Virus record (IMG/VR): IMGVR_UViG_2703719368_000005
Length of the DNA: 7,920 nt
Direction: 5' to 3' (one strand)
Origin: a virus
Lineage: Duplodnaviria > Heunggongvirae > Uroviricota > Caudoviricetes
The notes under the pieces were generated by a model. It ran no database searches. It was not told the DNA's origin and saw only the letters and a program-made list of their open reading frames with translations. Positions 193-4,636 of the stretch are shown here, piece after piece. How positions within the stretch are numbered: position 1 is the first letter of the stretch; every line of letters starts with the position of its first letter. Made by a program: the position numbers and the translations under genes.

Positions 193-228
193 TTTGCGGG
201 TCCTCCTGGTGGGGTGGGCCTGAACACG

Positions 229-240
229 GGGCGGGCGGGC
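229..240 (+). other. Putative cosN cohesive-end site (GGGCGGGCGGGC) of a lambda-like cos region
   Basis: ACGGGGCGGGCGGGCGCGG at 226-244 resembles the lambda cosN context ACGGGGCGGCGACCTCGCGGG as I recall it. It lies about 200 bp upstream of the small terminase start (about 190 bp in lambda). Downstream, TCGTCAT...AACTTGTTGTTTTTAATG (272-311) parallels lambda cosB TCGTCATAACTTAATGTTTTTATTT. Exact nick positions cannot be derived from sequence alone. Confidence 0.35.
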
Positions 241-279
241 GCGGAAAAAGGCGCATTTTTGTGATTTTATCGTCATCAT

Positions 280-289
280 CATCATGATG
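280..289. repeat. Perfect 10-bp palindrome CATCATGATG inside a (CAT)n/ATGATG-rich tract; possible cosB-like terminase binding element
   Basis: Read directly: CATCATGATG equals its own reverse complement. A related GATGATGATTGTGG element lies at 326-339. Both fall between the putative cosN and the small terminase start, where lambda carries its R sites and IHF site. Confidence 0.3.
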
Positions 290-429
290 GTAACTTGTTG
301 TTTTTAATGCTGTTAGTATTAAAAAGATGATGATTGTGGTTGTTTTTTGTTCGACATCTTTATATGGCGGCATTTCTTTACAAAAAAACAGAGTCACTTC
401 TGTTCTGCGGTTTATGTGGAGGGATGTAA

Positions 430-906
430 ATGGACGGCGAGCTGAAAAATATGAAGTTAAATATTAATCAACTGGCAGCCCTTTCAGGTCTGCACCGGCA
501 GACTGTTGCCGCCAGAATGGCGGATGTTCCTCTTGCACCAGGCAGTAATGAAAAGAAAAAACTGTATCTCCTGACGGATTTGATAACTTCGTTGCTGGAA
601 AAACCACCATCTTCCGAAGATGAGGATATGGATCCTCACGCTCGTAAGGCATGGTATCAGTCCGAGCGCGAGCGTCTTAAATTTCAGCATGAAACTGTTC
701 AGCTTGTGCCAGTCAGTGATGTCAGGCGGTCCTTTTCTGTCGTGGTGAAAGCGATAGTTCAGGTACTGGAAACCTGGCCTGACCGGCTGGAGAGGGACAG
801 GGGGTGGACCGCATCACAACTGAATGAAGTACAGATTGTGGTTGATGAGATCCGCGACACACTGGAAAAGGCAGTCATTGACTGTTGTGATGAGGCCGAT
901 ATGTGA
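430..906 (+). CDS. nu1: Terminase small subunit, lambda Nu1-like (N-terminal winged-HTH DNA-binding domain)
   Basis: ORF 430..906, 158 aa. GGAGG at 418-422 sits 7 nt upstream of the ATG. The N-terminus (K)LNINQLAALSGLHRQTVAARMADVP parallels lambda Nu1 MEVNKKQLADIFGASIRTIQNWQEQGMP (N-x-x-QLA...G...T......MP pattern). It directly precedes and overlaps the large terminase gene (ATGTGA at 901-906). An internal ATG at 451 is an alternative start. Confidence 0.85.
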   Translation: MDGELKNMKLNINQLAALSGLHRQTVAARMADVPLAPGSNEKKKLYLLTDLITSLLEKPPSSEDEDMDPHARKAWYQSERERLKFQHETVQLVPVSDVRRSFSVVVKAIVQVLETWPDRLERDRGWTASQLNEVQIVVDEIRDTLEKAVIDCCDEADM

Positions 907-3026
907 ATCAGGTGAACGAGAGCCATAGCCGCGCATCCGATATCTGGCGCGAAGTGGCCTCGCTGTTTCGCCCACCCAGCCGGTTACCAGTAGCGGAAGC
1001 CATCAGGCGTTATATGCGGGTTCCACGGGGAGCCAATACTTCCGGTCCGTGGGAGTCATCGCTGACGCCCTATATGATTGACCCCATTAATACATTATCA
1101 GCCCGTGAATATGACGCGGTGGTGTTTGTGGGACCTGCGCGAACCGGGAAAACCGAAGGGCTGATTGATGGCTGGATTGTGTACGGCATCATCTGTGATC
1201 CGGCGGATATGCTGGTGGTGCAGATGACTGAGACGAAGGCGCGTGAGCATTCCAGAACGCGTCTTTCCAGGACGTTTCGCCACAGTCCGGAGGTCAGCAA
1301 GCGCCTCAGTCCTTCCCGTAATGACAACAACGTCCACGATAAAATGTTTCTTGACGGCTCCTTCCTGAAGATTGGCTGGCCGTCGATCACCGTCTTTTCC
1401 TCTTCGGATTACCGTCGTGTGGCGCTGACGGATTATGACCGTTTCCCTGAAAATGTGGACGGGGAAGGGGATGCCTTCACGCTGGCCTCAAAGCGTACCA
1501 CCACCTTTATGTCCTCGGGGATGACCCTGGTCGAGAGTTCACCGGGGCGGGATATCACCGATACCAAATGGCGTTGTGGTGGCGCACATGAGGCACCGCC
1601 AACAACGGGGATCCTGTCACTGTATAACCGGGGAGACCGCCGCCGGTGGTACTGGCCGTGTCCGCACTGCGGGGAATATTTTCAGCCGGTGATGGATAAC
1701 ATGACCGGATACCGGAATAACCCGGATTTTGTGGCTGCCGGTCAGGCTGCCCGTCTGATGTGTCCGCATTGTCGCGGGCTGATTGCCCCTGAGCAGAAAC
1801 GCGAACTGAATAACCAGGGGATCTGGCTTCGTGAAGGTGAACGGGCGGCGGCGGACGGCAGTATCACCGGAACGCCACGAAACTCCCGGATTGCGTCATT
1901 TTGGATGGAGGGGCCAGCTGCGGCGTTTCAGACCTGGGAACAACTGATTTTTAAACTGCTGGCGGCAGAAGAAGAGTATGAGCGAACCGGCAGTGAAGAG
2001 ACCCTGAAAGCGGTGGTGAACACCGATATCGGACGACCCTATCTGCCCCGTTCAGCCACGGAACAGCGTAAAAGTGAACTGCTTGAACAGCGTGCCGAGC
2101 CGTTTCCCCGGCGATCTGTGCCGGATGGTGTGCGTTTTATTGAGGCAACGGTTGACGTACAGGGCGGTAAAAATCGCCGTTTTGTTGTGCAGATCACCGG
2201 ATACGGAGAGCAGGGGGAACGCTGGATTGTTGATCGCTACAACATCCGGCATTCACTGCGCTGCAGTCCCAACGGTGAAAGTCTGCCGGTTGATCCGGCG
2301 GCATATCCGGAGGACTGGGATTTGTTGCTGACGGATGTGTTCCATAAAACATGGCCGCTGGCTTCTGATCCGGATGTGCGCATGCGTCTGATGGCCATGG
2401 CGGTGGATACGGGAGGGGAAGCCGGGGTGACAGATAACGCCTATCGTTTCTGGCGTCGTTGCCGGAGTGACGGACTGGGCAACAGGGTGTTTCTGTTCAA
2501 GGGGGATGGACTTCGCCGTGACAGGCTGATTAACCGAACCTTCCCGGATAATACCGGCAGAAGTGCCCGCCGTGCCAGAGCCAGTGGCGATGTCGCGCTG
2601 TGGCTGGTTCAGACGGATGCGTTTAAGGATCGTGTAAATAATGCCCTGTGGCGTGACACACCAGGGCCGAACTATATCCACTTTCCCGACTGGCTGGGGC
2701 GGTGGTTTTACGATGAGCTGACCTATGAAGAGCGCGGCAGTGACGGAAAATGGCGAAAACCGGGCAGGGGCGCTAACGAAGCGTTTGACCTGCTGGTTTA
2801 TGCGGATGCGCTTGCCGTTCTGCATGGTTACGAAAAGATCCGCTGGCCCTCCGCACCGGACTGGGCACAGCGGGAAACGTGGCTCGTCTTCCCGCAGGAG
2901 CGTTCTGGTGAAACGGTATCCCCGGAACTGACGGCCGGGGCAGAAAAACGCCGTCGCCGGAAGAAAAAACTGTGGACGGAGCGTGCGGAAGATAATCCAT
3001 GGATAACATCAGGAGGCTGGTTGTGA
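903..3026 (+). CDS. A: Terminase large subunit, lambda gpA family (ATPase plus endonuclease)
   Basis: ORF 903..3026, 707 aa, GTG start overlapping the upstream stop. The N-terminal ...EVASLFRPPS... matches lambda gpA ...GLRSLFRPEP... at the same distance from the start. Walker A GPARTGKT at 1131-1154. Paired CPHC motifs at 1659-1670 and 1761-1772 (WPCPHCGEYF ... MCPHCRGL) parallel gpA ACPHCGEE. Size and position fit the family. Confidence 0.95.
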   Translation: MNQVNESHSRASDIWREVASLFRPPSRLPVAEAIRRYMRVPRGANTSGPWESSLTPYMIDPINTLSAREYDAVVFVGPARTGKTEGLIDGWIVYGIICDPADMLVVQMTETKAREHSRTRLSRTFRHSPEVSKRLSPSRNDNNVHDKMFLDGSFLKIGWPSITVFSSSDYRRVALTDYDRFPENVDGEGDAFTLASKRTTTFMSSGMTLVESSPGRDITDTKWRCGGAHEAPPTTGILSLYNRGDRRRWYWPCPHCGEYFQPVMDNMTGYRNNPDFVAAGQAARLMCPHCRGLIAPEQKRELNNQGIWLREGERAAADGSITGTPRNSRIASFWMEGPAAAFQTWEQLIFKLLAAEEEYERTGSEETLKAVVNTDIGRPYLPRSATEQRKSELLEQRAEPFPRRSVPDGVRFIEATVDVQGGKNRRFVVQITGYGEQGERWIVDRYNIRHSLRCSPNGESLPVDPAAYPEDWDLLLTDVFHKTWPLASDPDVRMRLMAMAVDTGGEAGVTDNAYRFWRRCRSDGLGNRVFLFKGDGLRRDRLINRTFPDNTGRSARRARASGDVALWLVQTDAFKDRVNNALWRDTPGPNYIHFPDWLGRWFYDELTYEERGSDGKWRKPGRGANEAFDLLVYADALAVLHGYEKIRWPSAPDWAQRETWLVFPQERSGETVSPELTAGAEKRRRRKKKLWTERAEDNPWITSGGWL

Positions 3027-3235
3027 GCACAGAAGAAGCCAGAGAAATGATACAGCGGTACCGTGAAGCGGAAATGGCCGTACTGGAGGGAAAGTCTGTC
3101 ACCTTCAACGGGCAGCAACTGACGCTGGAAAGCCTTTCTCAGATCCGCGCCGGACGTCAGGAGTGGGAACGCAGGCTTGCCGCGATGGTGAGCCGCAGGC
3201 GGGGAAAACCGGGATTTAAACTGGCGAGGTTTTAA
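3023..3235 (+). CDS. W: Head-tail joining / head completion protein, lambda gpW-like
   Basis: ORF 2999..3235 in the track; I favour the GTG at 3023 (AGGAGG at 3011-3016, 6 nt upstream, GTGA overlap with the terminase stop), giving about 70 aa against 68 aa for lambda W. The C-terminal ...RRRGKPGF... matches lambda W ...QRRRGPAGFYV, and the internal pattern (G-K-x-V, F-x-G, L-x-x-I) is shared. The ATG at 2999 is an alternative start. Confidence 0.8.
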   Translation: MSTEEAREMIQRYREAEMAVLEGKSVTFNGQQLTLESLSQIRAGRQEWERRLAAMVSRRRGKPGFKLARF

Positions 3236-4636
3236 TGGCAATTATTGATGATGTGATCGGCGTGTTTTCCCCCGGGTGGAAAGCAGCCAGACTGCGTTCA
3301 AGGGCGTTAATCATGGCCTATGAGGCGGTGAAACCGACCCGGACACATAAAGCCCGGCGGGAAAATCGCTCTGCTGATCAGCTCAGTAAATACGGTGCGG
3401 TTTCCCTGCGGGAGCAGGCCCGTTTTCTGGATATCAATCATGACCTGGTGATTGGTGTGTTTGACAAGCTGGAAGAGCGGGTGATTGGTGCCAGGGGAAT
3501 TATTGTGGAGCCTCAGCCATTACGAAAAAACGGGGAAATGGCGGCTGAGCTGGCTGCGGGATGGTGAAGTGTTTGCGCAGATGGTCAGTGGTGCGGGAAA
3601 CGGTCTGGAACGGACGGCGGGAGTGCCATTCTGGCTTGAGGCGATGGAGCCGGATTTTGTTCCCATGCGCACTGATGAATCCGCCGGACTGAATCAGGGG
3701 GTTTTTCTTGATGAGTGGGGAAGACCGAAAAAATATCTGGTTTATAAAAATTATCCGGTCAGCGGCCGGCAGAGTGATACGAAAGAAATCGCTGCCGGAA
3801 AAATGATCCACCTGAAGTTCACTCGTCGTCTGCATCAGACGCGAGGCTCATCCATGTTATCGGGGGTGCTGATGCGGATCAGTGCCCTTAAGGAGTATGA
3901 GGATGCGGAACTGACAGCGGCGCGTATTGCTGCGGCGCTGGGACTGTATATCCGTAAAGGTGACGGACAGGACTATGAAGATCCGGGGATCAAAGAGACC
4001 GAGCGGGAAGTCCATATCACCCCGGGTATTATTTATGACGATTTGCGCAAGGGCGAGGATATCGGCATGGTCAAATCTGACCGTCCCAATCCCAACCTTG
4101 AAACTTTCCGCAACGGCCAGTTGCGTGCAGTGGCAGCAGGCAGTCGTCTGAGTTTTTCCAGTGCGGCGCGTAACTATAACGGCACCTACAGCGCCCAGCG
4201 GCAGGAGCTGGTCGAGTCCACGGATGGTTACCTGATCCTGCAGGACTGTTTTATTGGCGCGGTAACCCGCCCGGTGTACCGGACATGGCTGAATATGGTG
4301 GTTGCGGCAGGTCTGCTGAAAATTCCGGCGGATGTGGAGATGAAAACGCTATATAACGCGACGTATTCCGGTCCGGTGATGCCGTGGATCGACCCGGTTA
4401 AGGAAGCTGAAGCCTGGAGAATTCAGATCCGGGGTGGTGCAGCGACAGAATCTGACTGGGTGCGTGCCGGTGGGCGCAATCCGGATGAGGTCAAACGTCG
4501 CCGCAAGGCTGAAATTGATGAAAACAGCAGACTGGGGCTGGTCTTTGATACTGACCCCGTCAACGACAAAGGAGGCAACAGTGCCGGAACTGAACGACAG
4601 TATCAGCGCGACACCGAAAGCCAGCATGAAGAATAA
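3235..4636 (+). CDS. B: Portal protein, lambda gpB family; reading frame interrupted once between 3485 and 3567 (N-terminal part 3235..3567, C-terminal part open from 3485 to 4636)
   Basis: The ATG at 3235 overlaps the gpW stop (TAATG). The two track ORFs (110 aa and 383 aa) overlap by 83 nt in different frames; the merged span is 1402 nt (3n+1), consistent with one extra base. Position between W and the head protease and a combined length of about 466 aa fit a lambda-type portal. The C-terminal segment NYNGTYSAQRQELVESTDGYLILQDCFIGAVTRPVYRTWLNMVVAAGLLKIP resembles my recollection of lambda gpB. Confidence 0.8.

Follow-up and report, generated by a model that had tools for sequence, protein, structure and literature searches.

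The window analysed in this work, a stretch of 7,920 nucleotides, carries on its plus strand the terminase and head genes of a phage, preceded by a region in which a series of putative DNA packaging elements can be recognized. The whole window shares 99.9% identity with prophage Sp15 of strain Sakai and with many other E. coli O157 genomes, bases 1–1000 of the window are 99.3% identical to phage VT1-Sakai, and the stretch from 200 to 440 is identical in the VT1-Sakai/Sp15 cos. These identities assign the window to a Stx1 prophage of the Sp15/VT1-Sakai type in E. coli O157. Its gene content is that of a lambdoid left arm with heads of the Gifsy-2-like kind: the large terminase gene is followed by a W-like small ORF, a lambda-family portal, a ClpP-protease/major-capsid fusion, a cement protein, a Gifsy-2-family protein and gpZ. 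The small terminase (TerS) ORF starts with the ATG at 430, with GGAGG at 418–422, and its product has the MDxEL N-terminus that is common to all homologues. The large terminase (TerL), encoded just 3' of the cos region, matches both PF05876 and PF20454 and is a full-length homologue of lambda gpA (24% identity over 675 aligned columns, E = 1e-18). Terminases of the gpA family generate 5' cohesive ends. The equivalent of positions 1–429 carries no annotated feature in the VT1-Sakai record. The portal gene shows, at about 3541–3559, a 101-bp deletion relative to VT1-Sakai with a 19-bp repeat at its bounds, which splits and frameshifts the gene (resulting ORFs 3235–3567 and 3485–4636); all twelve RefSeq genome matches listed span 99–101 bp more in this region or carry an IS1203 insertion.

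The putative packaging elements and the two terminase genes are as follows (a slash within a sequence marks a nick or a record end):

173–191, no strand assigned: Fur-box-like palindrome AATGATAACCATTATCATT, 6 nt 5' of cosQ; candidate accessory element.
198–204, plus strand: predicted cosQ, GGGTCCT, the sole GGGTCCT in the window and identical to lambda 48473–48479.
225–244, plus strand: predicted cosN, CACG/GGGCGGGCGGG/CGCGG, assigned by alignment to lambda ACG/GGGCGGCGACCT/CGCGG and from the record ends of relatives.
240–261, plus strand: conserved block CGCGGAAAAAGGCGCATTTTTG to the right of cosN, which in relatives reads CGCGG-(A/T)4-5-GGC-N3-TTTT.
270–285, plus strand: predicted R3-type TerS site TCGTCATCATCATCAT, at cos bp 42–57, a position that matches R3 of lambda and N15.
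291–303, minus strand: predicted IHF-type bending site (I1 equivalent) AAACAACAAGTTA, with one mismatch to WATCAANNNNTTR.
326–334, minus strand: predicted R2-type site GATGATGAT, an inverted copy of ATCATCATC (275–283).
350–360, plus strand: predicted R1-type site TTCGACATCTT, a third copy in direct orientation that agrees at 8 of 11 positions with ATCGTCATCAT of the R3-type site.
430–906, plus strand: terminase small subunit (TerS), DUF1441 family (Pfam PF07278, E = 3.8e-48).
903–3026, plus strand: terminase large subunit (TerL), lambda gpA family (GpA_ATPase, E = 1e-81; GpA_nuclease, E = 1e-84).

The left end of this array is occupied by the palindrome and the cosQ sequence, which together align with lambda 48451–48479 with a score that was reached by none of 500 shuffles. 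Lambda cosQ is the signal for the termination of packaging. The composite pattern of GGGTCCT followed after 18–28 nt by CGGGGCGG has a single occurrence in the window and was absent from all 200 shuffles, and the distance from cosQ to the predicted top-strand nick is 24 nt, compared with 23 nt in lambda. Across the family, cosQ is either kept or swapped for the variant AGGTACTCC. The palindrome matches the Fur consensus GATAATGATAATCATTATC at 16 of 19 positions, a Fur-box-like palindrome is found at the equivalent place in lambda (48451–48466), and elements with at least 14 of 19 matches are present in 36 of 87 non-redundant relatives as against 0.5% of shuffles. Among Fur sites equivalent to this palindrome, the one upstream of nohA shifts with Fur in a K-12 gel shift, and that of nohB has been predicted (PMC2189734). 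It is conceivable that the Fur box abutting cosQ makes the termination of packaging, or transcription reading through into the terminase genes, responsive to iron. The T-run at 190–191, between the palindrome and cosQ, is longer by two T than in the VT1-Sakai record, and it comprises 4 to 6 T among relatives.

The predicted cosN contains ACGGGGCGGGCGGGCGCGG at 226–244, within which three GGGC units extend from 229 to 240. Its left half, GGGCGG, and its left CG flank are identical to those of lambda, and they place the predicted top-strand nick at 228/229; the bottom-strand nick is predicted at 239/240, which would yield an 11-nt 5' overhang, with 240/241 as the alternative that would yield a 12-mer. 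The block at 240–261 has a recognizable lambda counterpart in CGCGGGTTTTCGCTATTT (bp 13–30). In lambda this interval is critical in length, and no other function has been assigned to it. The corresponding pattern, CGCGG-(A/T)4-5-GGC-N3-TTTT, is kept in E. coli prophages, in Pasteurellaceae and Vibrionaceae, and in the cyanophage Cr-LKS3.

The variation within cosN was assessed by counting the bases between CACG and CGCGG in relatives, of which close ones came from 80 viral contigs and distant ones from 80 genome loci with a single locus per species. The CACG...CGCGG frame was found in more than 140 loci. The full arrangement has a range that extends from Escherichia to Proteus, the Pasteurellaceae and the Vibrionaceae; in it, cosQ (GGGTCCT or AGGTACTCC) is followed after about 22 nt by CACG, by the cohesive end and then by CGCGG-A/T run-GGC-N3-TTTT. 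The interval between the two flanks is 12 bp in about 60 distinct loci as well as in lambda, and 10 bp in 53 loci of the E. coli Stx/VT-like group, where it reads GGGCGGGCGG or GGGCGGACGG. An interval of 11 bp is present in 22 further loci of this group, among them the window and VT1-Sakai, both with GGGCGGGCGGG, and a distinct lineage in which it reads GGGCGGGTCGG; one more locus of the group has an interval of 7 bp. Ten genomes encode exactly the TerS of the window; the interval is 11 bp in seven of these and 10 bp in the other three, and the rest of the cos is identical. The intact Stx phage Stx2_12E129_yecE likewise carries this very TerS and cos. A literature search for GGGCGGGCGG together with the word cohesive found nothing.

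These intervals bear directly on the length of the cohesive end. The CG pairs that flank both nicks are highly conserved (PMC4669245), and work by Feiss and co-workers has indicated that cosQ and cohesive-end bases 1–6 are conserved while bases 7–12 drift, and that TerS anchored at R3 places the bottom-strand nick. The natural length of cohesive ends in the cos class is also stated to vary (Vahanian 2017, as cited in PMC9303873), with a length as short as 7 nt cited from Vahanian et al. (2017). Since 11 bp separate the conserved CG flanks in the window, the overhang is probably 11 nt long; the conservation of the flanks, the R3-dependent placement of the bottom nick, the reported variation in length and the agreement of interval and cohesive end in Cr-LKS3 (described below) all lead to this prediction. 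Hence, on balance, we favour the 11-mer GGGCGGGCGGG (229–239) as the likely overhang. The original prediction had proposed a 12-mer, which runs one base into CGCGG and takes its C. This 12-mer, GGGCGGGCGGGC, would be produced if TerL acts as a rigid dimer with a fixed 12-bp stagger, as in lambda, so that the bottom nick falls one base inside CGCGG. The presence of exactly 12 bp between the flanks in the approximately 60 relatives and lambda is in keeping with such a stagger, as is the partial two-fold symmetry of lambda cosN, which suggests a symmetric dimer (PMC9026076). However, the 12-mer would turn the right flank into GC, contrary to the highly conserved CG at both nicks (PMC4669245), and it fits poorly with the 9-nt end reported for Cr-LKS3 with its 9-bp interval, with the identical TerS in sister prophages that have intervals of 10 or 11 bp, and with the natural variation in length reported for the class (Vahanian 2017, as cited in PMC9303873). 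We therefore regard the 12-mer as a possible but less likely outcome than the 11-mer.

We also put forward, tentatively, a further possibility, namely that the enzyme does not dictate the length of the cohesive end, which may depend instead on two half-sites that are each read independently. One TerL would read CACG/GGGCGG, and the other would be positioned next to CGCGG by the R3-bound TerS. If this is so, a single terminase in the O157 prophage pool would produce 10-nt, 11-nt and in one instance 7-nt ends depending upon the prophage, and hybrid or trans-packaged concatemers would give chromosomes with unequal end lengths. The polymorphism of 10, 11 and 12 bp beside an identical TerS offers a natural experiment on how a lambda-type terminase measures the distance between its nicks.

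A second source of information on the nick positions is provided by the ends of sequence records from related phages. The DUF1441 protein, used as a tblastn query, retrieved 56 phage records, of which several are opened at cos. The records of cdtI and Tritos, whose TerS proteins belong to DUF1441, start with GGGCGGGAGCGT/CGCGGAAAAAGG and finish in ...CCACG, and their first base aligns with window position 229. The LLS record contains, at 1–12, a feature described as "5' extended single-strand cohesive site GGGCGGCGCGCT"; its authors derived this end from TerL similarity and from a putative mEp213 site, although their reads did stop close to it, and we have counted this indirect derivation against cos as the best explanation. 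The record of the Hafnia phage yong2 ends with ...GGGGGCAGCGACA and starts with CGCGGGAAACGG, and hence it was opened at the right nick. In Cr-LKS3 the record reads ...GACGCG/GGGCTCGCG/CGCGGAAGTCGGCAGTTTTT (viz. ...CGCG/GGGCTCGCG/CGCGG); its authors measured a 9-nt 5' end, GGGCTCGCG, which is exactly the CG-to-CGCGG interval of this phage. The left ends of lambda, cdtI and Tritos, together with the end proposed for LLS, align base for base with the window from 229 onward, and the record ends of yong2 and Cr-LKS3 also fit the aligned nick positions. The record of mEp460_4F5, which begins 5 nt left of where the nick is expected and shows a 9-bp interval, counts against the cos reading; it appears to be mis-joined, and its close relatives phi458, PhiR40_1 and mEp460 have 12 nt where it has 9. 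The record of ASU11 (ON416862.2, from induced particles) also appears mis-joined and is without 44 bp (GAACACG...GATTT) across cosN, at around locus positions 295–300. The IMG/VR listings, compiled for a 21-mer of the right flank and for contigs with the exact TerS, consist mostly of prophage regions of isolate genomes and none of the contigs listed is flagged as breaking at cosN; they are hence uninformative on physical ends.

To the right of cosN, the predicted cosB follows the R3-I1-R2-R1 plan of lambda with different words, and binding of TerS to it is predicted from the positions, orientations and co-variation of its sites, for which about 50 representative relatives provide support. The R3 sites of lambda and N15 lie at bp 50–65 and 48–59, respectively (PMC9026076, PMC4669245). 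Within 262–365, a repeat finder identified ATCATCATC (275–283) and GATGATGAT (326–334) as a perfect 9-bp inverted repeat, and inverted repeats of at least 7 nt between cos bp ~43–54 and ~92–103 are present in 35% of representatives as compared with 8% of shuffles. Direct repeats of at least 7 nt between cos bp ~47–53 and ~121–128, corresponding to the third site, are found in 43% of representatives, again as compared with 8% of shuffles, and the 11-mer TTCGACATCTT is itself the R2-type site of LLS and yong2, where it is inverted. The words that make up the R sites differ by lineage (viz. CATCATCAT, CATCACC, GTGCAGC, GGACACC and TGTCA). The IHF consensus has three matches in the 7920 bp of the window, of which that at 291–303 is the only one within 262–365; it lies between the arms of the inverted repeat and aligns with lambda AAACATTAAGTTA at 74–86, inside I1. 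Of 49 representative relatives, 27 have a match at the same position and strand, the expected number being 4.8; nearly all of these matches start at cos bp 62–64 on the minus strand. Between the third R-type site and the start of TerS there are about 70 bp (362–429) that contain an A7 run and the short palindrome ACAGAGTCACTTCTGT and that are missing in LLS-type relatives.

All of the sequence strings upon which the original prediction was based are present at their places: ACGGGGCGGGCGGGCGCGG in cosN, TCGTCAT at 270–276, the 10-bp palindrome CATCATGATG at 280–289, AACTT at 292–296 and TGTTTTTA at 299–306. The comparison with lambda cos that it had set as a check holds, and cosQ, which it had not named, is present as well; the near-lambda spacing was likewise borne out, with 201 nt from G229 to the ATG at 430 and 190 nt in the lambda counterpart. 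The interpretation of the individual blocks requires some revision. The strings shared with lambda cosB are real, but the match to the IHF consensus and the alignment with lambda I1 identify AACTT and TGTTTTTA as parts of the predicted IHF site and not as TerS repeats. A direct comparison of TAACTTGTTGTTTTTA with TAACTTAATGTTTTTA of lambda cosB gives agreement at 14 of 16 positions, with a score reached by 21 of 500 shuffles, which is marginal alone and weaker than the result for the cosQ block. The (CAT)n tract had been taken for an insertion relative to lambda; the multiple alignment places it opposite lambda R3, and hence it is a conserved R3-type element, the apparent insertion being an artefact of alignment. 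Among the proposed TerS binding sites, the CAT/ATG elements do stand at the R3 and R2 positions and co-vary with the TerS helix, but the palindrome CATCATGATG is not conserved. Relatives that are 95% identical keep (CAT)4 and not the palindrome, with GTATG, TAGTG or AATGG in place of its ATGATGG half; it is private to a sub-lineage and was rejected as a functional unit.

The small terminase had further been described as Nu1-like. In sequence it is not: BLASTP gave no alignment to lambda Nu1 at E <= 100, and in Pfam the protein matched DUF1441 (PF07278) only and did not hit Phage_Nu1 (PF07471). Weak helix-turn-helix signals extend over residues 5–55, and the AlphaFold model (pLDDT 80) comprises a strand (9–11), helices 12–19 and 23–32, a 12-residue loop, a strand (45–47), a helix (48–57) and long helices. 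Foldseek searches with the full model found as best matches MerR-family regulators and 6hn7_B, which are weak, with E-values of only 0.06–0.1; the latter is a 72-residue chain from an entry concerned with the diversion of helper-phage packaging by pathogenicity islands of E. coli. A search with a separate model of residues 1–65 alone found nothing, its E-values being above 3. A MerR-like winged helix-turn-helix fold at the N-terminus, as proposed in the original prediction, was not confirmed by these searches.

The identity of the recognition helix and loop of TerS is closely associated with the words found in cosB. A HRQT helix with a (P)GSNxKLKLY loop occurs with CATCATCAT in 53 of 53 species loci, and HRQT with GG(H/N)xSNLKLY occurs with CAyCACCAC in 7 of 8. 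The remaining combinations are NRGT with GTCAGCAGCAGG (5/5 species loci), DRKT and a RGNPVYAL loop with GGACACCACC (4/4), and NRN(L/M) with GTGCAGCAGCA (2/2). Co-inheritance of adjacent DNA could account for a part of this co-variation, since linkage inflates the association; the concerted change of all three R copies argues for a TerS-DNA code. Sister prophages of E. coli (L057–L091 and L176, the last being 1720a-02) encode a TerS that is 77–78% identical, with the loop GGHESNLKLY and an R3-type CACCATCACCACC. These prophages share the cosQ, the cosN left half and the flanks of the window and differ in cosB, and on this sequence evidence they seem to represent a further specificity of packaging within one prophage pool.

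From homology, conservation, co-variation and the record ends of relatives, we infer the binding of TerS and IHF, the bending of the DNA and the exact positions of the nicks. During late growth, dimers of the DUF1441 TerS would read the R3-type site (270–285) and the inverted R2-type site (326–334); the IHF bend at 291–303 would lie between the two, and the third site (350–360) would assist. The bound TerS would anchor the gpA-type TerL on the block at 240–261, leading to a bottom-strand nick next to CGCGG, and a second TerL would read the left half-site CACG/GGGCGG and nick the top strand at 228/229. The two nicks would leave a 5' overhang, for which the 11-mer GGGCGGGCGGG is the most likely sequence, with packaging proceeding rightwards into the side of the head genes, and cosQ (198–204) would signal the terminal cut at the next cos of the concatemer. 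In strain Sakai, Sp15 has been reported to be induced and replicated, with its DNA recovered in DNase-resistant particles despite morphogenetic defects (Asadulghani et al., PMC2669165); the cos alignment in Figure S8 of that study comprises Sp4, Sp14 and lambda, all with small subunits of the Nu1 type, and it does not include Sp15.

Because of the 101-bp portal deletion, packaging in the genome from which the window derives would need heads from another prophage, and its cos may never be used unless heads are supplied in trans. This deletion, the description of Sp15 as morphogenetically defective and the variable length of the GGGC run (7, 10 and 11), which is consistent with slippage, could also indicate that the cos is a decayed relic that is no longer cut, with one G more than the common 10-bp form. 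We consider such decay unlikely, as Sp15 DNA with an identical cos enters particles in Sakai, all of the sub-sites are intact and fit the family consensus, a second lineage has an 11-bp interval of different sequence (GGGCGGGTCGG), and the 11-bp form is common in genomes encoding the exact TerS of the window.

Taken together, the region from about 173 to 360 of the window is very probably a lambda-type cos site, that is, the packaging site of an Sp15/VT1-Sakai-type Stx1 prophage. Most of the elements expected of a lambda-like cos are found here, viz. cosQ, the left half of cosN with its CG flanks (both of which are retained only in the 11-bp reading of the interval), a predicted complex cosB and a gpA-family TerL downstream; the 5' extension probably departs from the 12 bases that are expected. 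More than 100 loci, drawn from many genera, have the same layout of cosQ, cosN, cosB and terminase genes, and the central claim of the original prediction, that a cos site with cosN followed by TerS-binding repeats lies 5' of the terminase genes, is thus upheld by homology and comparative anatomy. That the site has no role in packaging, and belongs to a headful (pac) phage or consists of G-rich repeats with some unusual regulatory or structural nature (e.g. promoter element, G-quadruplex), is highly improbable, as the G-richness of the sequence is the sole point in its favour whereas TerL is of the gpA type, the complete cosQ-cosN-cosB syntax is kept across genera, and scans of the region for promoters and terminators (no signal above background) and against Rfam (no match) were blank. 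In kind, the element is ordinary; it belongs to a known class and is unannotated in the public records examined. We found no description of a DUF1441-type cosB in the literature that we could reach.

The location of this cos is of practical use in several respects. It gives the predicted start and end of the chromosome for this type of Stx1 phage, by which genome maps and read pile-ups from induced cultures can be oriented, and it helps in predicting which O157 prophages can be packaged by the terminases of other prophages. For the DUF1441-TerS family, whose GenBank records are mostly opened arbitrarily at the terminase gene, the comparative set provides a usable definition of cos that combines cosQ and the CACG...CGCGG frame with R sites that differ by lineage in step with the TerS helix.

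Among known systems, the predicted site most clearly invites comparison with lambda cos, with which it shares the order and approximate spacing of the sub-sites, an identical cosQ, the left half ACG/GGGCGG and the right flank CGCGG, an IHF site between sites at the R3 position and the inverted R2 position, a third direct site downstream, a TerL of the gpA type and a Fur-box-like palindrome just 5' of cosQ. Lambda reads ...GATGATAATCATTATCACTTTAC-GGGTCCT-(23 nt)-ACG/GGGCGGCGACCT/CGCGGGTTTTCGCTATTT and the window reads ...AATGATAACCATTATCATTTTTTGC-GGGTCCT-(24 nt)-ACG/GGGCGGGCGGG-CGCGGAAAAAGGCGCATTT. The window differs from lambda in its interval of 11 bp instead of 12, in an R3 that starts about 8 bp nearer to cosN, in R sites of the CAT-repeat type (TCGTCATCAT) where those of lambda are CGTTTCC, and in a DUF1441 TerS without detectable sequence similarity to lambda Nu1.

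Phages mEp213/LLS, cdtI/Tritos, mEp460 and Fels-1 have a TerS of the same family as that of the window (36–58% identity), and they share with it cosQ, CACG, the CGCGG-AAAnGGC-TTTT block, an R3-type site of (CAT)n or CAyCACC and the IHF site. Their interval is 12 bp (GGGCGGCGCGCT, GGGCGGGAGCGT, GGGCGGCAGCGG), in contrast to 11 in the window; in LLS, there is an overlap between the third site and the start codon of TerS, and the window has about 70 extra bp before the gene, a comparison in which the LLS/mEp213 cos is itself a deduced one. The cyanophage Cr-LKS3 resembles the window in a distantly related TerS (32% identity), a cosQ-like GGGTCCC, the frame CG/GGGC.../CGCGG with GGCAGTTTTT downstream, and an interval other than 12; it differs in its 9-nt end, its cyanobacterial host (Cylindrospermopsis), its genome of 66% GC and an unrelated cosB. 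Lastly, lambda and phage 21 have cosQ and cosN in common and differ in cosB and TerS, and this is paralleled by the window and the sister prophages with CACCATCACCACC, whose difference in specificity is predicted from sequence comparison.
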